Source of the DNA: a virus
Lineage: Duplodnaviria; Heunggongvirae; Uroviricota; Caudoviricetes
IMG/VR virus record: IMGVR_UViG_2636415418_000001
Span: 1-33,221 of that record
Reading direction: 5' to 3' (one strand)
DNA length: 33,221 bases
The notes beneath the pieces are model-generated. The model had not been told where the DNA came from. It did no database searches and saw only the letters and a program-made list of their open reading frames with translations. Made by a program: the position numbers and the translations under genes. Every line of letters starts with the position of its first letter. Within the stretch, counting starts at the first letter, position 1. Below, piece by piece: positions 1 to 31,140 of this stretch.

Positions 1-37
1 ACTATTGCTGGGTAAGATCACACAATACGGCTGTCAC

Positions 38-370
38 TTAGACGTAAATATCAATGGTGCCAGCGGTATTTGTATCGTCTTTTTTCTCTTCTTTTTTATC
101 AGGATGAACTGTCGCGTCTTCATTCTTTTTCTCTGCCTGCTGCCTTAACAACTGCTCCAGTTGAGCCCTGAGGCTTTCAATTTGCTTCTGTACCAATGCA
201 GCCATTTCTTTTTTCTGCTGTGTCGTCATCCCCTCTTCCGATGAGATTTTCCCAAGCTTTTCAGTCAGCACCTGAATTTGTCTTGTGATTTTGGCTATTT
301 CTGATGTTCCTTCCGGGGCGGAGTTGTTTGAAATAACGGTTGAGGTATTTCCCTGAATTGTGACAGACAT
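38..370 (-). CDS. flxA: FlxA-like protein (FliA-regulated, function unknown)
   Basis: 110-aa ORF recognised from memory as FlxA family; AAGGAG RBS and a canonical sigma-28 promoter lie immediately upstream. Confidence 0.6.
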   Translation of the reverse strand: MSVTIQGNTSTVISNNSAPEGTSEIAKITRQIQVLTEKLGKISSEEGMTTQQKKEMAALVQKQIESLRAQLEQLLRQQAEKKNEDATVHPDKKEEKKDDTNTAGTIDIYV

Positions 371-393
371 AGATTTCTCCTTTTAAAAAAGCA

Positions 394-420
394 CTATCGG
401 CATGCACAAAAAAATCTTTA
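394..420 (-). promoter_or_regulatory. sigma-28 (FliA) class-3 flagellar promoter
   Basis: Minus strand reads TAAA-N15-GCCGATAG (consensus TAAA-N15-GCCGATAA), about 23 nt upstream of the flxA-like ATG. Confidence 0.55.
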
Positions 421-1096
421 ATCGTATTTCTTGTGTCATTAATTGTTTGATGTTCAGATTGTTTTCCTCGCGGGCTGGCGCGCCTCAGAAAGTAAAGCTT
501 GTTGACAGGGGTAAACGTTCGGCAATAATTTTCTGCCGCATGCGGGTGTTGCATAAAACGTGCTACGTTCCTTTATCGACAGGTCAGGTCACCGCTCACC
601 CGCCGACGAGAAAGCAACACTGACATGCTAAAGCAAAAAATAGATGAATAAGTTGAGTTGTGCATATGTAGCCTGACCGTCACAAAGTATATGGTGTCTG
701 TACCAGTAAGATGGTGGCCGGACTCTTTAAAAACGAGCTGACCTGCACAATACAGGATGGACTTAGCAATGGCTGCTCCTGGCACATAGCAGCCCTAGAG
801 ACAGTGGCGTAAAGTCATGGAGGGTCGGTGGCAGGAGATGCAAATCCTCTCATACAAAAATACGTAAAATCAATAACGGCTAGAAATCATTCAATACTCG
901 CACTATCTAACATTTACCAGCCAACCGCAGCACGTCTTGCATACGACCTGTCTGCGGTTTCAATCACCTCTCACCACCAGTCCCATCAATAATAATTAAA
1001 CAGCGCCTAAACAAAATAAATAACAACAAGTCAACAACCTCGACAGGATGCCGATGGGATGATGAAGAGATAAGAAAGAATAACTAGTAAAGCCCT

Positions 1097-1126
1097 AAAA
1101 CGTCAGCGTTCAGACGCGTTTTTTAC
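1097..1126 (+). terminator. weak candidate intrinsic terminator in AT-rich spacer
   Basis: Imperfect hairpin aacgtc..gacgcgtt followed by TTTTTT on the plus strand; stem has a bulge. Confidence 0.25.
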
Positions 1127-1165
1127 TTAACCGGTAACAAATACGTTGTATCATAGCAACATAAA

Positions 1166-3115
1166 ATGATTGTTCTAAATCAGATTAACTCCTCACTTTT
1201 GTACAATGTCGCTTACAGGTATACCATGAAATCCGAGACGCTAACTGTCCAACAACTTTTTCAAGACCGCCGACAATACTGCGTTCCATTCTATCAACGT
1301 GCCTATGTATGGACTCAGCGAAACCAATGGTCAGCTCTACTGGAGGATATCCTAGAGAAAGCACAATCCCGGCTCTCGGGTACAAAACCAACTCCCCATT
1401 TCCTTGGTGCAGTGGTACTGGAACCTCAACCAAAAAAAGGATTATTAGGTGTAGATTCCATACATATTATTGATGGTCAGCAACGATTGACCACTCTTCA
1501 ATATGTTCTGGCATCCATCCGATTAGCATTACGTGCGACAGATCTTTCCAACTTAGGGCCTCTCATTTCGTCTTGCCTGAAAAACTCAAACGAAGACACA
1601 ATGCGAAATAAAGAAGTAGAGCGCTTCAAACTGTGGCCAACTTTTCGGGATCAAACTCATTTTATTCAAAGTTTTAATGTTGAAAATATTGACGATATCC
1701 GGAATGTATTCTCTGATAGTTTCACGCAGCATGGTACGTTGCGTAAGCATTTTAATCACCCGCCATCACTAGAAGCATTATGTTTTTTTACTGAAGCCTT
1801 TATAAAGTGGATTAAAATAGAAAATCACTCACCACGAGAAAATGCTGTAGCATTAATTGAGGCTGTCTTGACGGATCTGAAACTAGTAAGCATATTTCTC
1901 GAGGCTGAAGATGACGCTCAAATAATTTTTGAAACATTAAATGGCAGAGGTGCGGAACTTCATGCCACAGATCTTATTCGCAATTATATTTTTATGTGCG
2001 CTGAACATGAAAATATTAATGCTGTTGAATTATATGAGAATGAGTGGAAGATCTTTGAAGATACGTACTGGTCAGAAAGACAACGTCGTGGTCGTATTAA
2101 TAAACCACGCATGGAGTGGCTAGTGCATGCGACATTGCAATCAGAAAGGCAACGTGAAATCGATCTGTCTCGTCTTTACAATGAGTATCGTGATTATGTA
2201 AGTAAGGACTTGCCTTCACAACGAGCAGATCTGCAAGTAAAGCGCCTCAAACAATATGCATCACAATATAAAGAATTGGTTGGTGGTTTTGGCACAACCC
2301 CCATCTCACACTTTGGACATCGCATCGCAGCCTATGATGTGACGACACTTTATCCGCTTGCTTTGTTCATTTCGATAGCTAACATCGCCGATGATGAGAA
2401 AGCAGCCATGTATAATGATCTTGTCTCCTACGTAGTACGAAGAGCCGTATGTGGCCTGACGCCAAAGAATTACAACAATGTATTTATGAATGTATTGCGG
2501 CACTTGTCTAAAACGGAAATTTCCAGTGTTGAGTTACGTAATATCCTCAATAGCTTAAATGGCGAAGCCTCACGTTGGCCTGGGGACTCAGAATTTCTCA
2601 ACGCTTGCATCAATGCTCCACTTTATCCTGGCAGGCTCGACGCACCGAAAATGCGCTCAATGTTAACGGAACTTGAAAGAGAACTTTGTCGCCAAGTGAA
2701 GACAGAGAAGCCTGATGTTCCAAATCTTTCTAACCTCGATATCGATCATCTTATGCCTCAAAGTTGGTATTCCTGTTGGCCTCTCGAAAATGGTCATATG
2801 GTGACAAATTCAGATGCTACGGTATTGAACCAAATTGTTCTGTCTGGAACCGATCTTACCCCTGAACAGCTACTGGTAAGGAAACGGCAACAAGCGATAG
2901 CTACGTTGGGAAATCTAACTTTGCTTAACCTTAGCGTAAACCGTTCTGTTCAGAATGCTGTATTTCTGAAAAAACGTGATGCTCTCATCGTCCACACCAA
3001 TCTACGACTGAACATTCCACTTATAGTTAAGGATAAATGGGATGAGGATGAAATCCTGGAGCGGGGTAAAAAGTTGGGGGAAATTGCATTGAAAGTATGG
3101 CCAAAACACGATTAA
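1166..3115 (+). CDS. DUF262 (ParB-like, DGQQR motif) plus DUF1524 (His-Me/HNH-like) fusion protein; GmrSD-like putative type IV restriction/defence nuclease
   Basis: 649-aa ORF; N-terminal YQRAYVW and IDGQQRLTTL motifs, C-terminal DIDHLMP motif; AT-rich relative to the adjacent tail genes; the ATG at 1226 (MKSETL) is an alternative start. Confidence 0.8.
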   Translation: MIVLNQINSSLLYNVAYRYTMKSETLTVQQLFQDRRQYCVPFYQRAYVWTQRNQWSALLEDILEKAQSRLSGTKPTPHFLGAVVLEPQPKKGLLGVDSIHIIDGQQRLTTLQYVLASIRLALRATDLSNLGPLISSCLKNSNEDTMRNKEVERFKLWPTFRDQTHFIQSFNVENIDDIRNVFSDSFTQHGTLRKHFNHPPSLEALCFFTEAFIKWIKIENHSPRENAVALIEAVLTDLKLVSIFLEAEDDAQIIFETLNGRGAELHATDLIRNYIFMCAEHENINAVELYENEWKIFEDTYWSERQRRGRINKPRMEWLVHATLQSERQREIDLSRLYNEYRDYVSKDLPSQRADLQVKRLKQYASQYKELVGGFGTTPISHFGHRIAAYDVTTLYPLALFISIANIADDEKAAMYNDLVSYVVRRAVCGLTPKNYNNVFMNVLRHLSKTEISSVELRNILNSLNGEASRWPGDSEFLNACINAPLYPGRLDAPKMRSMLTELERELCRQVKTEKPDVPNLSNLDIDHLMPQSWYSCWPLENGHMVTNSDATVLNQIVLSGTDLTPEQLLVRKRQQAIATLGNLTLLNLSVNRSVQNAVFLKKRDALIVHTNLRLNIPLIVKDKWDEDEILERGKKLGEIALKVWPKHD

Positions 3116-3135
3116 TGCAATTAATAAAATGATTA

Positions 3136-3163
3136 TAGCGGCTTTACATTAGTAAGGCCGCTA
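3136..3163. terminator. candidate bidirectional hairpin terminator between convergent genes
   Basis: 7-bp stem TAGCGGC/GCCGCTA with a 14-nt loop, between the DUF262 gene stop (3115) and the pin fragment stop (3211). Confidence 0.3.
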
Positions 3164-3210
3164 CTCACTATTAAATCCTTTAATTTGCAACAAGAACAGC
3201 AGTGTCAGCC

Positions 3211-3339
3211 CTAGGTTTCGGACTTTGTACCGCTTATCTTGTCTTCAAAAATCAGCTCGCATCCTGCACAGCTCAACGCATTACGTTGTAGATCGGTGTT
3301 CTGGTCATTTGTTGATACGCGTACATAGCCAATAAGCAT
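3211..3339 (-). pseudogene. pin: truncated serine DNA invertase (Pin/Gin/Hin/Cin family), N-terminal 42 codons only
   Basis: Minus-strand translation MLIGYVRVSTNDQNTDLQRNALSCAGCELIFEDKISGTKSET-stop matches the invertase N-terminus including the catalytic-serine motif; good RBS GGGGGAG; homology ends at the stop and unrelated AT-rich DNA follows. Confidence 0.8.
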
Positions 3340-3365
3340 GGTAGCTCCCCCTGACAAAAGCAGGA

Positions 3366-3740
3366 ATGATGCCATTTGCTCGTTATTTCTGCATCTTCAT
3401 AAACGTTGGTTTGGGAGAAGCGGCAAAACGGAATGTGGGAACTGGGGAAAATCAGATACCTGATATGTCATCATATGCATCAGGTTCAGGCTGGCGAAAA
3501 ATGCCAGATGGTTCAATTGAACAGTGGGGACGAATTAGTTTTCCTAGTGAACACGGGCCTGTATCCGCCAATGTTTCATTCCCGATTCCATTTACACAGA
3601 CACCGGGCATTGTAATTGTGTGCGATGGTGGTTTCGGGGGTGGGAATATGTGGGGGGCGACCAACTGGAGCACTACCGGCTTCATAGCTCACTGCAATTA
3701 TGGTCTTGAAGGTGGTGCGTTTTTCGCTAAGGGCTGGTAA
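3366..3740 (+). CDS. alternative tail-fiber C-terminal cassette (S'v-like); silent in this orientation
   Basis: ORF reads through crossover site A in the same frame and with the same NxGLG(D/E) junction as the expressed fiber at site B; Gly-rich C-terminus; Tfa gene directly downstream. Confidence 0.5.
3394..3419. repeat. 26-bp invertase crossover site (gix/hix/pix-like), pin-proximal
   Basis: TCTTCATAAACG-TT-GGTTTGGGAGAA; inverted copy of the site at 5189-5214 (13-nt perfect core TCTCCCAAACCAA); lies in frame in the alternative fiber cassette. Confidence 0.65.
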
Positions 3741-4183
3741 TGATGAAATATCTGTACGTAAACAACCTGGCATATCCTTACGAACTTAAGTCTCTTTATG
3801 TTGAAAAAGGTGAGTGGCCTGAAGAAAAAGGTGTTGATATAGACGAAGTAATTTTCAGGGAATATTTCTATGATACACCACCAGAAGGAAAATACAGATG
3901 TGTCGGAGAAGATGGACTGCCTGCATGGGTAGATATTCCTCCACCAACACGTGAAGAACAAATTGCATCAGCCGAAACTAAAAAGCAGCAATTGATTAAT
4001 CAGGCCAACGAATACATCAACAGTAAACAATGGCCAGGTAAAGCATCAATTGGTCGTCTGAAAGGTGAGGAACTGGTGCAATATAATTTGTGGCTGGATT
4101 ATCTGGACGCACTGGAACTGGTTGATACCTCCAGTGCTCCAGATATTGAATGGCCTACGCCTCCGGCAGTTCAGGCCAGATGA
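3740..4183 (+). CDS. tail fiber assembly protein (Tfa/U'-like) for the alternative cassette
   Basis: 147-aa ORF with a Tfa-family C-terminus (…TSSAPDIEWPTPP), converging on the minus-strand Tfa. Confidence 0.65.
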   Translation: MMKYLYVNNLAYPYELKSLYVEKGEWPEEKGVDIDEVIFREYFYDTPPEGKYRCVGEDGLPAWVDIPPPTREEQIASAETKKQQLINQANEYINSKQWPGKASIGRLKGEELVQYNLWLDYLDALELVDTSSAPDIEWPTPPAVQAR

Positions 4184-4565
4184 CATCCGGCGCAGTGCTG
4201 GTATCTGTTGCCGTCACCGCGTCAATGTAATCCAGCACGGCGTTAAGTCGGGTGGTTTCTGCCTGCGTCAGCTTCCGCCCGGCCTGCAGCTTTAACTGAA
4301 TCACGCTGATATTGACCATTGCTGCGTCTATCAACGACTGTTTTTTCTGTTCAGCGTCAGCTACCAGTTCATCATGAGAACGTTCCGGAGGGAGCGGCGC
4401 AGTAAATACCCCGTCTGAATACGCCCAGCCGATTCCGGGCTGCTCACTGATATCAGAAATATTAATGAGCTGCAGATTATCCGGCACAGTGAATTCATCC
4501 TCGCCATCCCAGACAATGACATTCACAACCATCCCATTTTCAATAACTGCATATGACGCATTCAT
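4155..4565 (-). CDS. tail fiber assembly protein (Tfa/U-like)
   Basis: Start taken at MNASYAV, where the ATG overlaps the fiber TAA; Tfa-family C-terminus (…TSTAPDVIWPELP). Confidence 0.7.
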   Translation of the reverse strand: MNASYAVIENGMVVNVIVWDGEDEFTVPDNLQLINISDISEQPGIGWAYSDGVFTAPLPPERSHDELVADAEQKKQSLIDAAMVNISVIQLKLQAGRKLTQAETTRLNAVLDYIDAVTATDTSTAPDVIWPELPEA

Positions 4566-5491
4566 TATGCAAACTCCTCGATAATACAAACCCCATCAGC
4601 ACCTTTCCCGCCCGTCATACTGGTTCCGCTATAACCTGCATCGTATGCACCACCTCCGCCTGAACCAAATGCCCTGCCTCTAACGCCACCGCCAGCGCCT
4701 GCACGTCCACCGCCTCCCCAGTACGATGCACCGCCTTCACCGCTGACGCTGATATTCCCGGACTGACCGTCGCCTCCATCTCCACCAGTGATGCGGATAT
4801 CGCCAATATTCGGTACGCCTCCGTTACCGCCGTTTGTGTTTGTGACTCCTACTTTTCCGCCGCCTTCACCACCAGGGGCTATTACCGATCCGAACGAGCT
4901 ATCACCGCCCTTGAGGCCGTTCGTCGCACCAACGCCGCCGGCCCCACCTGCGCCGATAGTGACAGGATAACTATTCTGTGTCGGGGTCAGTATGGTGATT
5001 ACTGTCCCTCCGGCCCCACCGCCAGCACCGAAAAACGTTTCGTTACTGGATATAGCCTGGCAGCCACCCCCTCCGCCACCGCCGCCCGTTATTGTGACCC
5101 TGATCCGTTTTGTTTCTGGTGATGGGGTATACGTACCTGATGACGCGAAAGCCCGGGTACTCAGCCGGCGTCCCACGTATCCGCTTGTATCTCCCAAACC
5201 AAGGTTTTGAAGAGCCGTTTTCACCGTGCCGTCCGATTTGATATCGCCAAACGGATTTTTGCGACTTAACAGCAGCGCACGAAGCGCGGTAAGCAGCTGG
5301 TCATGCCGCCCCTTCTCCAGGCTGGCACCGGATGCCTCCACCACGCTGCAGAGCTCCTCCTGCAACATGTCAAAGTAGTCATCATCCAGATCGGTGGCAG
5401 GCGTGCCGGTCTGGGGGTTACCACGGGTAAAACCGTTCTTACCCGCGCCGAACTTATCCTTCTGCGCGGTTTTCGTGTCTATACGATGCAT
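4565..5491 (-). CDS. tail fiber protein (Mu S-like), Gly-rich variable C-terminus
   Basis: 308-aa ORF; constant N-terminal ~92 aa, then crossover site B in frame, then Gly-rich repeats. Confidence 0.8.
5189..5214. repeat. 26-bp invertase crossover site, fiber-proximal
   Basis: ATCTCCCAAACC-AA-GGTTTTGAAGAG, inside the fiber gene where it encodes ALQNLGLGD; inverted partner of 3394-3419. Confidence 0.65.
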
Positions 5492-5494
5492 GGA

Positions 5495-6079
5495 TTACTC
5501 CGGATATTTAAAAATTACGTAGGTATGCGACGGGCAGAGTTTGTTAAGCACGCACTCGATAACGGTGTCCCCCCAGATACGCAGTGCGGAATCGCAGGGA
5601 TCGCCACATGTCATCCAGGTGGTGTTGGTGGCAGCTGGCATATTGACCTGCCAGTAATACCGCCATTCCGGCGCATTCACCGCGTCAGTACAGGCCGATG
5701 AGCAGGTGAACGTGCTTTTGTCGTATCGCGTGATGGTGGCATCTGGTCTGCCCAGGGCAGCAAGCTGCGCAAGGTAAAAATCCTCATTGATGCCACCCGC
5801 CAGGTTAACCTTCGCATCCAGCCGTTGCTGACGCTGGCGAAGGGTCTGCGTCCCTGCCGGAATACATTCATCCGGCAGGCCGCACAGACGCTCCCAGCGG
5901 TTTATCAGTTCGGTGGTGGTGCGCGGATCCAGCTCCCGCATCAGGGCATCCGCACGCTGATGAGCACGGGTTAATGACGGTGCCGCACCGGCAATCGCCG
6001 GATCGCTGGCTGACCACGCCGGACCGGGGGGCAACAGTGCCGACAACAGACGGATGTAATCATCGTTTGTCACGTCCAT
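5495..6079 (-). CDS. tail protein, Mu gp48-like (DUF2313/YmfQ family)
   Basis: 194-aa ORF in the Mu gp48 position between baseplate J and the fiber gene. Confidence 0.65.
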
Positions 6080-7128
6080 GAAATCGTCCCCAGTACCGCC
6101 AGTTCATTTTTTGCAATGGAGATATTGTCTGCCGGTGCAAGCAACTGATGGCTGTATTCCCCGTTCGCACCGGAAATCGCCTCACTGATACGCGATACCT
6201 TCAGTTCTCCCTGCGGATAACCATCACGCAGAAGAAACGAACGCAACTCCGCGGTGATGGCGGCTCGTATTTCTGGTGTGTCCGGCGTCACGCGGATATG
6301 AAAATCCACTTTGTGCGCCACCGGCCTGAATACATACAAATCAGAGCCTGCCACCGGGGCCAGTGGCACGATATGTTGTCTTGCTGCCGTTTCCGTTGAT
6401 TCTTCCGGAATGGGATTAATCAGGTCACTGCTGGCAATCATCACACCGACAGTTCCCGTTCCCATCCAGTGACGGTATGTCCATGCGCGGGTAATGCCGG
6501 GCACTTCTTTAGCCCAGACGACATAGTCCCCGTCAGCCCCGCCCTGAGGCGTCCAGTAATACCGCTCAATGACGCGGGCGCGCCACGTTTCCAGCTCTTC
6601 AGTATCAAATCCGCCTGTAAGGGTGTCAGCCACACCGGAAGACGGCAGACCATTCACCGGCGTGACCAGGATTAATGCCGTACCGTCGTCAGCGTTACCG
6701 ACCGCACCTGCACTTGAGCAGGCGATCGGCACGCGCAGGACACCACCGGAGCTGGTTGCATCGGCAGTTGCCGTGTACTGAACCAGGTCATCGCGCTGAA
6801 TAACACTCCCGGCGGTCACCTTCAGGCCATCGCTGACACCTTCCCAGCGCATATACCCGCTGGCAGCCGTGGCCCCCTTGCGCGGACACCGTTTCATCGC
6901 AGCATGTCGCGCCAGCCAGGACTCATCGCACAGGTCAGGCAGCATGTTCATTGCCAGATAATCGATGTAACCGTAAACCGTATGCAGCGCCGCCGCATAC
7001 ACCTTTGCCCGCACGTCTTCATCCATGCGCCGGAGCGTGTCGCTGACGTCCAGCCTGGTGAATAAATCGTTACGGAGCATACTGATATTTTCTGCCAGCG
7101 TCGGGCGCTGAAATTCACTGTCCGCCAT
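6070..7128 (-). CDS. baseplate J-like protein (Mu gp47-like)
   Basis: 352-aa ORF in conserved Mu baseplate gene order; overlaps both neighbours as in an operon. Confidence 0.7.
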
Positions 7129-7543
7129 GCGTTATCGCACTCCACAGATCATCAAAAGAAATCATTACCGGTCCGTCACGACGCCAGAGAGTGATACTGT
7201 TACCCAGTTCATTAATCCCGGTGCGGCGGATATCCAGATCAATACGGGACACCACGCCGTCATCAATCATCCATTGCAGGCATTCGCGGATATACCCCCT
7301 TACCGTCTGCACCAGCTGATTGGTCAGTTTGCTGCGCTGAAGCAGCCACAGTCGGGAGCCGTAACGGTCATTCTGTACCGCAGGCCAGGTATCCCCCCAC
7401 CATCCCATCGGGACGTCGGCGTTGTCATCAGGCTCCGCCCGCCGCCAGGTAAACAGGGAAATCACCACGGCGCGGGTCAGCGGATCCAGTTCTGCGCTGG
7501 CGCAGGTGCGTTTACCGTTCACCGTCAGCCACAGTTCCATCAT
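7115..7543 (-). CDS. baseplate protein, Mu gp46-like (GPW/gp25-like)
   Basis: 142-aa ORF between the spike and J genes. Confidence 0.6.
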   Translation of the reverse strand: MMELWLTVNGKRTCASAELDPLTRAVVISLFTWRRAEPDDNADVPMGWWGDTWPAVQNDRYGSRLWLLQRSKLTNQLVQTVRGYIRECLQWMIDDGVVSRIDLDIRRTGINELGNSITLWRRDGPVMISFDDLWSAITHGGQ

Positions 7544-25353: not shown

Positions 25354-25382
25354 AATATATGCTTTTTAATCCAGTTTTGCAA
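25354..25382 (-). promoter_or_regulatory. pR'-like late promoter
   Basis: Minus strand: TTGCAA-N17-TATATT spanning the Q stop codon; the qut site would be expected just downstream. Confidence 0.45.
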
Positions 25383-26055
25383 TATTTTGCTGTGAAAATG
25401 TCGCCTTTTGTTTTGAACGTGTTCTCGTTAGAAGCAATAAAGCTTCGCTATCAAGCTGTAGAAAAATGTGCTTCATTGCAACCCAGCGTTCAGTGAATGT
25501 CTCAGACCAGTTTTTTGATGTCACTCCCACCAGTGACGCCAGTTCCTGGTATTCATAAGCCTCACGCCCTGCCAGTTCGCTCTTCACATCCTGTGCCGCC
25601 AGCCAGATCAACTTCTTCAGGCGTTCCAGTGTCTTACCTGCAATTTTTCTGGTACCCAACAGAGTCTTAAACTCGCTCCATGCCCACTGCGTTATGGCAA
25701 CCTGATGCTCCCAGCGAATATTTTCACTGTAACTCCACAGCAACCATGCTTTCTGATGCTCATCGAGAGACAGAACAGCGCGGCGCCATGAAGAGGTTGA
25801 AAACTCGACCGGACTGATCAGGGCGACAGATGAACCTTTTGCGTACGACTGTTTACCGGAAATCGGCGGATTATCCAGCATAATAATCTTGCCAGTTACC
25901 TCATCCAGAATGCGTCGCTTCTTTCGTTTGTATGTACCAGTATCAAATTGTGCATGCTCCAGCCAGGCTTCAAGCTGGCCTTTCGTTGCTCCGCTCAAGT
26001 CAGCGGTAGCCACCATGAGTTGCTCGCGGACATACTGTAAATATTGGGTATTCAT
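25366..26055 (-). CDS. putative late-gene antiterminator Q
   Basis: 229-aa ORF with strong AAGGAG RBS, between ylcG/rusA and the pR'-lysis region; family not confirmed by sequence. Confidence 0.5.
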   Translation of the reverse strand: MNTQYLQYVREQLMVATADLSGATKGQLEAWLEHAQFDTGTYKRKKRRILDEVTGKIIMLDNPPISGKQSYAKGSSVALISPVEFSTSSWRRAVLSLDEHQKAWLLWSYSENIRWEHQVAITQWAWSEFKTLLGTRKIAGKTLERLKKLIWLAAQDVKSELAGREAYEYQELASLVGVTSKNWSETFTERWVAMKHIFLQLDSEALLLLTRTRSKQKATFSQQNIAKLD

Positions 26056-26189
26056 GCGGCAGCTCCTTTCAGTGTTTTGGCGTAATTCCTCAGTATTCGG
26101 TAATCGGTCAAAACAGAACCGGGGAAACGATATAAGCGCAGGCGCATCCAGCGGTGGCGAAGACGTTCTGCCATATAAGACTCAAACAT
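26052..26189 (-). CDS. ylcG: YlcG-like small protein
   Basis: Unlisted 45-aa ORF whose start overlaps the rusA stop and whose stop overlaps the Q start; DLP12 order rusA-ylcG-Q. Confidence 0.55.
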   Translation of the reverse strand: MFESYMAERLRHRWMRLRLYRFPGSVLTDYRILRNYAKTLKGAAA

Positions 26190-26551
26190 CATTCATCTCC
26201 CAGTTCAGTGATGGTCAGCTCCAGCTTTCCACCTTTGGTAACGGGCATCTTCACAACGCGGTAATCAACGACCTGAGCATCATCCAGCCAGAAACCCGCT
26301 TTGGAGAGTGCGTCAAAAGCGGCCTTTTGCAGATTATCCAGGTCACGGCGACGGCGATCCGGCATGTGGCACTCAATGCGGATTTTCACAGGAATAGCCA
26401 GGCCGATATCCAGCATTGCGTTTTTAATGATTCTGGCGACGTTATCGCGGTATGCCTGCCCCTCTGCGCTGACGTGCGTGCGCCCGCGATTATGGCGGTA
26501 ATAGCGATTATTGCTCGGAGGCCAGGGTAATGTGATGCTGTAGGTATTCAC
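26189..26551 (-). CDS. rusA: RusA Holliday-junction resolvase
   Basis: 120 aa, near-identical to DLP12 RusA. Confidence 0.9.
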
Positions 26552-26838
26552 GCCTTAATAACCCCCTCTTTCAGCCACATAACCTGTGTTCTCGCCATAC
26601 CTTCCAGCGCGCATTCTTTTGCATATCCAGCGTCAACAAAATGCGTGCGACGGTCGATCTCATCGTGACAGGCAGAACATGCAATGGTGGCAATCAGGTC
26701 TGGCGGTTTGGTACCGGTGCCGCACAATCCAGCCAGCCGGATATGTGCCAGTACAGATGTTTCAGGGTTGCCATTACATACGCCAGGGATTCTTACCTGG
26801 CATTCCCGACCACGCGCTGCTTTTCTCAAATCAGCCAT
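26548..26838 (-). CDS. ybcO: YbcO-like protein (DUF1364)
   Basis: Start taken at MADLRKA (96 aa), which matches DLP12 YbcO; the track ORF starts 13 codons earlier. Confidence 0.8.
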
Positions 26839-27001
26839 GACTCCTCCTTGCTGCCAGTCGCAACCATTTTTTATCAACCAGGCTGGCGGTATATCCGAGC
26901 AGTGTTGGTATTTCGGATGGCTTCAGCTCAGGTTTACGCTTACGACGATTTGGTACTCTGTAGATGTGTCCGTTCATGACACGAATAAGCGGTGTAGCCA
27001 T
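26831..27001 (-). CDS. ninE: NinE
   Basis: 56-aa product from MATPLIRV; C-terminal WLRLAARR motif as in lambda NinE. Confidence 0.7.
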   Translation of the reverse strand: MATPLIRVMNGHIYRVPNRRKRKPELKPSEIPTLLGYTASLVDKKWLRLAARRSHG

Positions 27002-27456
27002 TACGCCTCCTGCTTGTCGCGCAGCAGCTGGAACTCGCAGCTCTGTGGAATAGTCAGGTGGCAACCAATATTCATCGCCCAGGCTTCAACCTTACACAGG
27101 AAGACATACATCTCTCCGGTATCAAGATCGGAGGTATGGCGTAACGATTGGATAGTGGTGATATCACCGGTTACGACATCAACCAGGTCTTTGGTTTCAT
27201 AACCGAGATATGTGTGTTTGAGAGCATCTTTTACCCAAGCTGGAGTGGCGAACGTTTTACCCCTGCTGATGAGGTATTCACTGATTTCGCTGTACCACAT
27301 GTGGCTGAGTGCATTCTGGGAAAGACTGCGTCTCTCGCGCCACGGTTTAAGCACCATGCGAAAGCATTTGCCGTCCTCCAGATAAGGCTGGATCTGCCGA
27401 CCGATAGCGGTGAAGTTACCGCGATGCAATTTGATACCATCTTGTGGGAGGTTCAC
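27001..27456 (-). CDS. ybcN: YbcN/NinB-like protein
   Basis: 151-aa ORF with RSLSQN motif as in NinB; DLP12 order ybcN-ninE-ybcO-rusA. Confidence 0.7.
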
Positions 27457-27640
27457 GCTTCACCTCCGCAGAGGTCAAACGCTGGATGCAAAAAATCGCA
27501 GGTACATTTCTGCATCTGTGAAGGGAGAAGAGAGTTTGGATTGTATGTGCGCATAAACGTCCCCGTTTAGCGCAGAAGTCACCGAAGTTGTTCAAGCTCC
27601 GGTGACACAAGTATGGCGGTTTGATTATGGAAAATCAATT

Positions 27641-28453
27641 TTAGAATTTCATGTTAAAGCCGCTAAAATCTGTTTTTTTCTTGTATGGTATGGTCGTGTA
27701 CTGATCTGTTGATGTTTTACTCATAACATGTGCGAGAATAAGTTCATCTCCTGAATCCAGCCAAAACTCCACAGTCAAATGAATTTTTGGTTTAAGACCA
27801 TGCATTAATGCAACCATTTGTGCGCTAAACACTTCACCCGTGCTTAGTTTATAGTCTGAACGGAAACCTTGGATAAAACCACTTTCACCTAATACATTAT
27901 ATCTTAATTCATTATCCTTTAATTTATTAGTAAATAAGAACAAAAAGTCAGCGGTAACCTCGCTAAAATGATCAGCGGAAACCCTAACTATTACTTTATT
28001 GGATTCTGTTTTAAAGTCATATGAAAGATTGGAGAATAATTCATCCTGAGGTTTATAAGTGCTTTTACCAGAGATAATATCATTCATTTGTGCTATCACT
28101 ACATCTATACCATTTGTATAAAGGTCCAAATACACTTTTTGAGTAAGAAGTGCAGGCATAGGTGATTCATCACAACGTATAGCAATGAATTTAACATCTC
28201 CAGTGGCGGCTTTCATAAGTGCATTCTGCCATTCTAAAGACACCATATCACTCTTAAGGCTATTTTTTGTAACAAAGAAAAAGAAAATTTTAACGGATTC
28301 GATTCCATCATTCATTCGTTCAATAATCCCTTCACCAGGCTGAATTGACCACGAATCATAAAATACGTTATCCCTGCCATATATATCTGCAATTTTATCT
28401 GCAATATACCCAACGAAAGCTTTGTCTTTATAATTATGACTAATAAAAATCAT
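27641..28453 (-). CDS. TIR-domain protein with uncharacterised ~140-aa C-terminal domain
   Basis: N-terminus MIFISHNYKDKAFVGY…WSIQPGE…SLEWQNAL fits the bacterial TIR fold; strongly AT-rich gene with its own RBS. Confidence 0.7.
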   Translation of the reverse strand: MIFISHNYKDKAFVGYIADKIADIYGRDNVFYDSWSIQPGEGIIERMNDGIESVKIFFFFVTKNSLKSDMVSLEWQNALMKAATGDVKFIAIRCDESPMPALLTQKVYLDLYTNGIDVVIAQMNDIISGKSTYKPQDELFSNLSYDFKTESNKVIVRVSADHFSEVTADFLFLFTNKLKDNELRYNVLGESGFIQGFRSDYKLSTGEVFSAQMVALMHGLKPKIHLTVEFWLDSGDELILAHVMSKTSTDQYTTIPYKKKTDFSGFNMKF

Positions 28454-28545: not shown

Positions 28546-28839
28546 TCAATACCCTACCCTCCCCCAAACCATCAACACCCGTTTCATCGCGGCACTCTGG
28601 CGACACTCCTTAAAAATTAGGTTCGTGCTCACCTTTCCTTCCCGTTCTTCCCTGGTAGCAAACCGGTAATACACCGTTCGCCAGACCTTACCTTCGATAA
28701 CCAGAAGACCTGCCCGTGCCATTTTAGCCGCGGCCTGATTTATGCTGGTTACTGTTGCGCCTGTTAGCGCGGCAACGTCCGGCGCACAGAAGCTATTATG
28801 CGTCCCCAGGTAATGAATAATTGCCTCTTTGCCCGTCAT
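28546..28839 (-). CDS. ren: Ren
   Basis: 97 aa, near-identical to lambda Ren over most of its length. Confidence 0.85.
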   Translation of the reverse strand: MTGKEAIIHYLGTHNSFCAPDVAALTGATVTSINQAAAKMARAGLLVIEGKVWRTVYYRFATREEREGKVSTNLIFKECRQSAAMKRVLMVWGRVGY

Positions 28840-29537
28840 ACACTTGCTCCTTTCAGTCCGAACTTAGCTTTGAGTTCTGCGATCTTCGCCAGAGCCTGTG
28901 CACGATTTAGAGGTCTACCGCCCATGACAGGAAGTTGTTTTACTGGTTCAGGGATCGCCTCACCACGGTTAATTCTCGCAGTCATATGGACAAGCTCATC
29001 TGCGGCCTTACGGCGTAATTCCGCATCAGTAAGCGCATTGGCCCGCATGTTCTGATACAGGTTGGTAACCAGCCAGTAGTGCGCGTTTGATTTCCACGGA
29101 TAAGACTCCGCATCCGGATACAGGCCTCGCTTCCGGCAATACTCGTAAACCATATCAACCAGCTCGCTGACGTTTGGCAGTCCGGCGATAACGGATGCTT
29201 CTTCCCGGCACCATGCAATAAACTGCCCGGGTGATGGCAGAAATGGTCGATTCTGCCGACGGGCTACGCGCATTCCAGCGTTAACCTGTTCCATCGTGGT
29301 GATCCCATTTTCCCGGAAAGCCAGAACCCACTGGCGGCGGATTTCGTTCAGTTCGTTCTGGTCCCGGTTAGCCAGGCTCGCCGGGAAAGTTGCCAGTAAC
29401 TGGCTGAACACACCATTGATAATCTGCGCTACCTGCTGTACCTGCGGCTTTTCGTCGTACTGTTCCGGCATGTTATTGGCGATCCGGCACATCTGCTCAC
29501 GGTCAAAGTTAACCATCTGTGCGGCGATGTTTTTCAT
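28836..29537 (-). CDS. P: replication protein P (DnaB helicase loader)
   Basis: 233 aa, near-identical to lambda P. Confidence 0.9.
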   Translation of the reverse strand: MKNIAAQMVNFDREQMCRIANNMPEQYDEKPQVQQVAQIINGVFSQLLATFPASLANRDQNELNEIRRQWVLAFRENGITTMEQVNAGMRVARRQNRPFLPSPGQFIAWCREEASVIAGLPNVSELVDMVYEYCRKRGLYPDAESYPWKSNAHYWLVTNLYQNMRANALTDAELRRKAADELVHMTARINRGEAIPEPVKQLPVMGGRPLNRAQALAKIAELKAKFGLKGASV

Positions 29538-30463
29538 AAATCCACCCCATAAATCCAGTCAGTGTTTGTCAGGTCGAGTTTTGATTTTCCGGCTGTCACG
29601 CCAGCCTGTTGCTTGTTCCGGTTGATTTCGAGCTGGGTCCACTTGTCGCGGAGTTTGGCCGGACTCAGCACGTTACCGGACCAGAAGTTGTCCTGGCAGG
29701 CCCAGCGGAACAGTACACACATGTCGCGGTGGTTACGTCCATCACGTTCACGCATCAGACGGATATCGTTAGCCCACCCTGCAAAATTCGGTTTTCTGGC
29801 TGATGGCGCGATGGTCTTCACCATATCAAACATCCACTCTGCGGCGGTCAGGTCTTCTGCTGTCCCCCACTTGCTGCCGCTCTGAATCGCAGCATCCGCT
29901 TTCACCACAGGAAGGTCGTTTTCTGGCAGGTCAGAGGATTCGCCAGAATTCTCGGACGAATAAGGTTTTATATTGTCTTTTGTTAGTTTGTCTTTTGTGT
30001 TTACCTGATTCGGGTAAGTGCCTTTACCTGATTTGGGTAAACTTTTCTTACCTGATTCAGGTAAATTTACCTCTTTCAGGTAAACTTTATTTTTCTTACC
30101 TGATTCGGGTAATGTTGACCATTCACTGACCACATTATTAATGCCTATATTCCGCCCGCTCTGAATAAAAATCCCACGCTTTACCAGAGCACTTTTTGCA
30201 GCAGAACACTTGTGCGGCAATATCCCGGTCAACTCGGAAAGTTGCTCGTTGCTCACCCAATCCAGTTTTTTATTAAAGCCATATGTTTTGCGCATGACAG
30301 CCAGGAAGACCAGAAGCTGGTGCTGTGTTAATCCGGCCAGCATTACAGCTTCCAGCAACTCATTTGCAATGCGCGTATAACCATCATCGAGATCTGCCAC
30401 GCGCGGCTCCTTTTGTGCCGCATCCGGCACAGGAAAATTGAATATCTCAGCAGTGTTTGCCAT
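29534..30463 (-). CDS. O: replication initiator O
   Basis: Start at MANTAEIFNF with GGGAGG RBS; N-terminus aligns with lambda O; iterons lie inside the gene; the track ORF extends 30 codons further upstream. Confidence 0.85.
   Translation of the reverse strand: MANTAEIFNFPVPDAAQKEPRVADLDDGYTRIANELLEAVMLAGLTQHQLLVFLAVMRKTYGFNKKLDWVSNEQLSELTGILPHKCSAAKSALVKRGIFIQSGRNIGINNVVSEWSTLPESGKKNKVYLKEVNLPESGKKSLPKSGKGTYPNQVNTKDKLTKDNIKPYSSENSGESSDLPENDLPVVKADAAIQSGSKWGTAEDLTAAEWMFDMVKTIAPSARKPNFAGWANDIRLMRERDGRNHRDMCVLFRWACQDNFWSGNVLSPAKLRDKWTQLEINRNKQQAGVTAGKSKLDLTNTDWIYGVDL
30001..30112. repeat. origin of replication: five 17-bp iterons inside the O gene
   Basis: TTACCTGATTCGGGTAA and variants at 30001, 30024, 30048, 30067, 30096; AT-rich stretch at 29960-30000; encode the LPESGKK repeats in O. 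Confidence 0.75.
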
Positions 30464-30549
30464 AATTCCTCCCGCAATGAGTGTGTTACGATTTGCACCT
30501 GAAAGTCGGTTCTGTTCCCGCAGACCGACTTTCGCCATTTTTGAACCTG

Positions 30550-31140
30550 TCATATTGCCCCCAACATGGTGGTAACCATCGCCATCAATGGACCAGCCAG
30601 ATCCGGGTCCACACGAAACATCGACACAATACCTTCACTCATCTCCTTCAGTTTCTGGTGGCGTGGTGCGTTGAGAATGACAGCCTGTTTTGCCTCACTG
30701 AGTTCCTTTTCCATTTCAGCCAACCGAGTCATGAAGCTATCCTGCTCAACCAGGTAACCGCGATATTCCAGCGGTAGTACCGCCAGAATTGCCGGGGTCA
30801 ATTCACGCACGTTATTTCGGTATTTTTCAGAATCGAATTTGTTATCGAGGAAGCGGAACAGCTTCTGGCGTGCACGGCTGACATCATCAGGGAAATCGAT
30901 GGTGCCGCCGCCCTGTGCTCGATACTCATTCACAATGAGTGCGGCAACGACATCCTGATTATCTTCAGCCGACCAGGCGCGGACGGCATCACGAATTTTT
31001 TCGTGGCCTGGCACCTGTTTTGTTTGAGAACGATTTATCACCGCTGTCGGGGTAAATCCGCTAGTCTGTTGGTATGTAAGTGGTTGCATAATTGACTCCT
31101 TTAGTTTGAATTGACTGTTAAGTTGATTGCTTATTGTCAA
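30550..31140 (-). CDS. YdaT-like protein in the cII position
   Basis: Motifs EYRAQGGG and LTPAILAVLP match the YdaT family as recalled; start uncertain (an internal ATG is possible). Confidence 0.6.
   Translation of the reverse strand: MTISNQLNSQFKLKESIMQPLTYQQTSGFTPTAVINRSQTKQVPGHEKIRDAVRAWSAEDNQDVVAALIVNEYRAQGGGTIDFPDDVSRARQKLFRFLDNKFDSEKYRNNVRELTPAILAVLPLEYRGYLVEQDSFMTRLAEMEKELSEAKQAVILNAPRHQKLKEMSEGIVSMFRVDPDLAGPLMAMVTTMLGAI

Follow-up and report, generated by a model that had tools for sequence, protein, structure and literature searches.

A tail-fibre inversion switch with a truncated invertase gene beside a GmrSD restriction module in Escherichia coli prophages

Organization of the switch locus

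The DNA analysed here, a window of 33,221 nucleotides (nt) from a virus of the Caudoviricetes (IMG/VR record IMGVR_UViG_2636415418_000001, positions 1 to 33,221), belongs to a prophage with close relatives among Escherichia coli genomes and carries a tail-fibre inversion switch. Next to this switch, the gene of the serine invertase, pin, ends after 42 codons and abuts a module encoding a GmrSD type IV restriction enzyme (Table 1). The constant N-terminus of the fibre lies outside the invertible segment, while two in-frame C-termini, each followed by its own Caudo_TAP tail fibre assembly (tfa) gene, lie inside it; the two tfa genes are convergent, and the ATG of the expressed one overlaps the stop codon of the fibre (TAATG). 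The crossover sites are in inverted orientation with complementary central dinucleotides (TT/AA) and have in common the 13-mer TTGGTTTGGGAGA, present in two exact copies in the window, at 3406-3418 (+) and 5190-5202 (-). The count expected from shuffled sequences is 0.04, and two copies were reached in none of 100 shuffles. Perfect identity between the two repeats is limited to these 13 bases, or extends to 18 with one mismatch. Both sites are read in frame, as ...QNLGLGD at the right site within the expressed fibre and as ...INVGLGE at the left site in the silent copy. Reverse-complementing 3406-5202 in silico gives an uninterrupted alternative fibre of 207 amino acids (aa), so that the two orientations provide complete open reading frames (ORFs) of 308 and 207 aa, and strains T2 and ET474 indeed have the gp53-like C-terminus, silent in the window, fused in frame to the constant part. 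The first-pass annotation of this DNA had described two 26-base-pair (bp) inverted sites around about 1.8 kb with two fibre C-termini and convergent tfa genes, all of which were located as claimed; its further statement that both sites sit in frame at a conserved junction is borne out by the residues just given and by the clean 207-aa fusion.

Table 1. Coordinates of the switch, the pin remnant and the restriction module in the window
Feature	Position	Strand	Details
Left 26-bp crossover site	3394-3419		TCTTCATAAACG TT GGTTTGGGAGAA; central TT at 3406-3407
Right 26-bp crossover site	5189-5214		ATCTCCCAAACC AA GGTTTTGAAGAG; central AA at 5201-5202
Invertible segment	3406-5202		1797 bp counted between central dinucleotides
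pin remnant	3211-3339	-	42 codons and stop; MLIGYVRVSTNDQ...SGTKSET, then stop; Pfam Resolvase positions 2-48 of 145
Recombinational enhancer homologue	3250-3321		wholly within the pin remnant; corresponds to cin nt 19-90
Expressed tail fibre gene	4565-5491	-	308 aa; from the ORF list; Pfam Gly_rich_2 at residues 119-305
Constant StfP-like fibre N-terminus	5203-5491	-	outside the segment
Variable glycine-rich fibre C-terminus, expressed cassette	4565-5200	-	
Silent alternative fibre C-terminus, gp53-like	3408-3740	+	Pfam Gp53-like_C
tfa gene, silent cassette	3740-4183	+	Pfam Caudo_TAP, E = 2e-33
tfa gene, expressed cassette	4155-4565	-	Pfam Caudo_TAP, E = 2e-21
GmrSD (DUF262/DUF1524) type IV restriction gene module	883-3215	+	2.3 kb; replaces the 3' three-quarters of pin
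GmrSD gene	1226-3115	+	629 aa; NCBI annotation; longest ORF starts at 1166

A complete serine invertase, with its catalytic domain and the DNA-binding domain at its C-terminus, would measure about 180-190 aa; of the one adjoining this switch, 42 codons are left. As the first-pass annotation had read it, this remnant keeps the catalytic-serine motif (YVRVST) and a purine-rich ribosome-binding stretch (AGGGGGAG) 5' of its ATG. Local alignment to the intact pinE of strain TK3896 and to that of K-12 places the similarity at 3216-3339, i.e., gene nt 1-124; compared with the intact pinE locus of TK3896 and with K-12 e14, identity is 94% from the left site to gene nt 124 (3216), with no similarity beyond, and the stop codon of the remnant is supplied by foreign DNA. 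Identical DNA is labelled in NCBI as “recombinase family protein, missing C-terminus.” A tblastn search with PinE, Gin and Cin across the window matched only the remnant, and no other serine recombinase was found in the window or in the 42-kb prophage region of T2. The 3' part of pin was absent from the window and from the full prophages fetched. A truncation arising as one end of a local inversion, which would leave this part nearby, was also considered and rejected, since none of the fetched loci contains it. Of 5,426 complete E. coli genomes, 286 (~5%) contain the junction between GmrSD and the pin remnant. Its place on the chromosome varies, ydfV and the thrW prophage being its neighbours in 127 and T2 and tRNA-Pro in MLI107 and TW14425, and it also accompanies other cassette pairs, e.g., that of NU14. 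The same junction at several sites with different cassette pairs therefore points to one old event that spread rather than to an error.

The remnant also encloses a stretch homologous to a recombinational enhancer. In the P1 record, cin nt 19-90 are marked as the enhancer of the Cin system, and no gap interrupts the alignment of cin, gin, K-12 pinE and the remnant across their first 124 nt. The homologous stretch shares 96% identity with pinE of K-12, a strain in which inversion of the segment is established (PMC4272514; PMC12529663), and the truncation leaves 34 bp past it. Two Fis-core-like G-N13-C 15-mers were seen at 3304-3318 (gene nt 22-36) and 3255-3269 (gene nt 71-85), which, measured centre to centre, are 95.5 and 144.5 bp away from the left site. 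This spacing agrees with that of the Hin system, where the enhancer is 65 bp long and its proximal Fis site lies ~100 bp from hixL (PMC3798978). By homology, an enhancer would thus be placed inside the 5' end of the invertase gene, ~100 bp from one site. The earlier guess that the remnant retains the enhancer, and the advice to look for Fis sites in 3211-3339, agree with this match and with the two 15-mers, as far as sequence can predict.

Some further observations concern the segment and the remnant. In the NCBI annotation of identical DNA, the 308-aa fibre ORF is divided into a “StfP pseudogene” (5189-5491) and a “glycine-rich protein” (4565-5176), the silent cassette becomes a separate gene from an upstream ATG (3366-3740), and the second tfa gene is marked partial. 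Strain TD225-C4 carries, in an unrelated prophage remnant, a 1.8-kb segment (locus 3501-5308) that is 99.4% identical to window 3401-5208 and adjoins an intact 182-aa invertase, 55% identical to PinE. Because the similarity ends within the 26-bp sites on either side, the segment as a whole acts like a movable module, with exchange taking place at the crossover sites. The match of the 1797-bp length to the published length of the e14 P segment was discarded as a coincidence of end counting, the K-12 interval being 1829 bp by the definition used for the window. The pinH pseudogene of K-12 (NC_000913.3, 2783065-2783304) is an internal pin fragment whose similarity to pinE begins at nt 124, the same nucleotide where that of the window remnant stops; two independent breaks within one base of a 555-nt gene have a chance of ~0.5-1%. 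An internally deleted IS3 fragment presumably precedes pinH. As to the two being reciprocal products of one event, no similarity was found between the flanks of the two loci.

Orientation of the segment among genomes

Locking of the switch was tested by building the predicted inversion product in silico and seeking it among genomes. The orientation of the window was matched by nine genomes at 99.7% or more over the full length. The in silico flip of 3406-5202 was matched by strain T2 at 100.0% across 2701 nt and by ET474 at 99.8% across the full 2701 nt, and both strains carry the same GmrSD protein and the same pin remnant as the window. Both orientations are likewise found with the cassettes of the NU14/UTI89 type, whose carriers we take to be largely ST95 extraintestinal pathogens: 78 genomes have the NU14 orientation and 24 are flipped, 22 of the latter (IHE3034 and APEC O1 included) being 100.0% identical to the in silico flip over 3101 nt. 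The truncated invertase is identical across genomes of either orientation. Exact in silico products of segment inversion thus exist as real genomes with the truncated invertase, and the inversion therefore postdates the truncation. Hence, precise inversion at these sites has taken place after truncation in at least two lineages. The first-pass annotation had considered the switch probably locked; this is not supported in that form, since genomes with the identical truncation occur in either orientation, base-for-base flip products among them.

Strain PA45B is the flipped form of NU14, and all 94 one-base gaps between these two near-identical strains lie inside the segment (positions 4972-6840), none of them in 7.5 kb of flanks. 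Such a pattern is as expected of a consensus drawn from reads of mixed orientation and is suggestive of a possible live mixture. PMV-1 was examined as a second assembly of this kind and set aside, its differences being real substitutions and not gaps. The tRNA-Pro lineage also occurs in both orientations, flipped in 50EVA and unflipped in TW14425; the left flank is 100% identical and the segment differs by 4.4%, a difference that rules it out as a third clean flip.

Possible source of the invertase and alternative explanations

These results are best explained by an inversion substrate that is complete and whose enzyme was lost to the insertion of a defence gene, so that inversion requires a Pin-family invertase provided in trans and, without one, the segment is passed on unchanged; the probability of this reading is estimated at about 0.7. 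The GmrSD module replaced pin from codon 42 onward and left the prophage without an invertase of its own. Both 26-bp sites and the first 124 nt of pin survive, the enhancer being placed by homology at its native ~95-145 bp from the left site, and the locus would constitute a complete substrate lacking its enzyme. A serine invertase of the Pin/Gin/Cin/Hin or PinQ/R type, encoded by a further prophage, by a plasmid or by a phage that infects the cell, would catalyse the reaction in trans, with Fis bound to the retained enhancer, and in its absence the orientation would simply be passed on. Each flip would join the constant N-terminus to the glycine-rich or to the gp53-like C-terminus with the matching tfa gene downstream. 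Inversion would probably be occasional and dependent on what else the cell contains. Such a contribution in trans is illustrated by PinQ of prophage Qin, which, expressed from a plasmid, brings about inversion of the e14 P segment (PMC12529663).

A donor was sought by joining a strain-specific GmrSD marker to invertase probes and counting the matching places per chromosome; these counts give numbers and not locations, cover the chromosome of each strain, and are made with DNA probes that miss divergent invertases. The first counts gave a second pinE-like place in 58 of 60 window-type carriers. This candidate was abandoned because it was gone in most of them with a probe for the 3' third of pinE, and it is probably a fragment like K-12 pinH, which matches pinE nt 124-270. 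Differences between probe counts indicated pinQ/R-like loci, one in T2 and three in 127, pinE itself not cross-matching pinQ. One extra invertase-probe place each was counted in PA45B, NU14, UTI89 and IHE3034. The e14 element, sought at icd in T2, was absent there.

Several points weigh against the reading proposed above. DNA-level probing of chromosomes revealed no donor invertase: the pinE 3' third together with a divergent invertase probe gave nothing extra in 28 of the 45 window-type carriers listed, including T2, ET474 and 127, and on the chromosomes of these three strains no 3' third of a pinE/gin/cin-type or TD225-type gene was detectable by blastn. ET474, which is flipped, had no pinQ-like locus by probe counts either, and 29 of 60 NU14-type chromosomes had the marker only, among them the flipped EC9682, DETEC-S589, GN06489, GN06758 and PMV-1. 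The prophages are also mosaic, so that some homologous exchange does occur: T2 is identical to the window through ~5600 and then only 98.4% and 97.2%, and PMV-1 diverges from ~6225. The independent flips could be as few as one per lineage, and Fis binding and enhancer activity of the remnant are predictions from homology. However, orientation is heritable, and a flipped genome therefore need not still hold the enzyme. The caveat of the first-pass annotation, that an invertase from elsewhere in the genome might act in trans, thus fares in two ways: the evidence favours this reading, but no full-length Gin/Cin/PinE-type gene was found on the chromosomes of the closest carriers.

The mosaicism and the many carriers without a detectable invertase would also suit a switch that is truly locked, the two orientations arising from homologous import of a flipped segment or from RecA-type recombination between the short repeats; the pair 50EVA and TW14425, with its divergent segment beside an identical left flank, is no harder to reconcile with exchange than with a clean flip. 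We nevertheless regard this as unlikely. In two lineages the flipped form equals the in silico product at 100.0% across the segment and both flanks, whereas identity falls to ~94-95% in loci that have these cassette types and an intact pinE, so that import from such a donor would have left differences. Repeats sharing 13 identical bases, or 18 with one mismatch, are below the usual length for RecA-dependent recombination, and the gap pattern of PA45B suggests a live mixture of orientations. That the segment is served by a recombinase outside the Pin family, or by a Pin-family enzyme too divergent to be detected, encoded elsewhere in the carrier genomes, appears less probable still. ET474, PMV-1, GN06489 and GN06758 are indeed flipped and have no chromosomal pinE-, TD225- or pinQ-type gene detectable by blastn, and the TD225-C4 invertase, which serves the same segment, is nearly invisible to the pinE DNA probe. 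But the enzyme need not have persisted in a flipped genome, the probing was at the DNA level and of chromosomes, and the sites and enhancer are canonical for the Gin/Cin/Pin/Hin class. As for the sequencing artefact of a full-length gene that the first-pass annotation had envisaged, this explanation is refuted: the 42-codon ORF does not continue in another frame, past 3216 the DNA bears no relation to pin, the 3' part of the gene is missing from the window and the fetched prophages, and the same junction recurs in 286 independently sequenced genomes.

Going beyond the trans-dependent switch favoured here, it may be asked whether selection keeps the 124-nt remnant as an enhancer in cis, the invertase having been traded for a restriction gene and switching outsourced to the invertases of other elements, with an unrecognised recombinase where no Pin-family gene is detectable. 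This extension is speculative and in our opinion doubtful. If true, host range would be set by the other mobile elements of the cell, and, given the precedent of PinQ and StfE2, the same could hold for a surface-blocking anti-phage state.

Prophage context and relation to known systems

The prophage to which this tail-fibre switch belongs is temperate, e14/SfV/SfII-like, and has a baseplate of the Mu type. It measures ~37 kb in strains 127 and T2, where it lies at the tRNA-Thr gene thrW next to proA and its genes for head, tail, baseplate, lysis, Q, replication, repressor and integrase are unbroken; the same structural and regulatory genes are intact in the window. Hence, the choice of fibre likely matters for a phage that can still be produced. 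The phage collection contained no phage with the truncated arrangement. At the other side of the module, window 1-883, which adjoins the end of the thrW prophage, holds flxA and a fragment of ydfV, both of them belonging to the Qin prophage in K-12. The thrW/proA region of T2 is opposite to that of K-12, and its icd region follows the K-12 gene order, which hints at a rearrangement.

The GmrSD protein matches Pfam GmrSD_N and GmrSD_C and, over its full length, the PADLOC model mREase_IV (1438 bits). Its DUF262 and DUF1524 domains with the HNH-type D-H-N residues (D507/H508/N522, numbering after PMC4437046) place it in this family, with a predicted activity. The block 883-3467 is common to loci at other chromosomal sites with 96% identity, and the hairpin that follows the gene was not called by a simple terminator scan. 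Prophage-borne enzymes of this family, Eco94GmrSD, UTI89_C2960 and APECO1_3911, are reported to follow directly on the tail-fibre genes of an SfII-like prophage (PMC4437046). The window gene shares with them the domain layout, the D-H-N residues and the position “immediately downstream of the tail fibre genes” (PMC4437046), and UTI89 and APEC O1 both carry the locus in which GmrSD meets the pin remnant. The word “invertase” appears nowhere in that article (PMC4437046), and the truncated invertase is therefore not described there. The slot beyond pin holds a different gene of nuclease or defence type in each relative, namely mcrA in K-12 e14 (locus 6347-7180), a GIY-YIG protein in TK3896 (locus 2236-3009) and GmrSD in the window (1226-3115), and looks like a cargo hotspot at the prophage end. 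Elsewhere in the window, a 270-aa TIR-domain protein (27641-28453, -) is encoded between the Q antiterminator gene (25366-26055) and the replication genes (28836-30553), upstream of Q in the minus-strand order of the prophage. The related prophage of T2 (locus 26148-27525) has a TIR-domain and a caspase-family gene between the holin and antiterminator Q genes. These genes are possibly further defence cargo.

An orphan switch is found beside the well-studied GmrSD in ~5% of complete E. coli genomes, including UTI89, NU14, S88, APEC O1 and IHE3034, at a locus whose pieces annotation pipelines call pseudogenes, as happens to phase-variable fibre genes. This emphasizes that a truncated invertase gene by itself does not mean a frozen phase-variable locus. 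If flipping requires a foreign invertase, the fibre type of the released phage would depend on the other mobile genes of the cell, and, by analogy with StfE2, the phage-resistance phenotype of a lysogen might depend on a foreign invertase too. The proposal is concrete and testable, given the exact flipped genomes, the retained enhancer homologue, the 5% prevalence and the GmrSD neighbour in standard pathogen strains.

The closest known system is the e14 P segment of K-12 (stfP/tfaP/tfaE/stfE-pinE-mcrA), which has the same order of ymfQ, a StfP-like constant part, a segment with two cassettes and two tfa genes, and pin. Its crossover core TTGGTTTGGGAGA is identical, the 5' end of the window pin is 96-100% identical to K-12 pinE, and a type IV restriction gene, mcrA, likewise lies beyond pin. 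Unlike in e14, pin is cut at codon 42 in the window, GmrSD stands in place of the 3' part of pin and of mcrA, and little of the cassettes is common to both, alignment being confined to the constant part and one tfa gene. The host element differs as well, since e14 is a cryptic element at icd whereas strains 127 and T2 carry the full-length ~37-kb prophage at thrW. The Mu G/Gin and P1 C/Cin systems belong to the same Fis- and enhancer-dependent class, which switches tail-fibre C-termini and has its enhancer in the 5' end of the invertase gene, but the genomes of Mu and P1 each include a complete invertase gene.

These invertases are classically known to complement one another, and Fin of Fels-2 is reported, in work by Kutsukake from 2006 that is cited in PMC4272514, to act on the hix sites of Salmonella. 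In the same way as proposed for the window locus, PinQ of Qin acting on the e14 P segment is a case of one element's serine invertase inverting the segment of another (PMC12529663). The targets in these two cases keep an invertase of their own, PinE and Hin, respectively, whereas the window locus would depend obligatorily on an outside enzyme. What defines a self-contained switch and is lacking at this locus is an invertase of its own, and the locus is therefore placed as an orphan, trans-dependent form of a known kind of system. It works like e14 P, Mu G and P1 C, and its ancestor was a locus of the e14 type.

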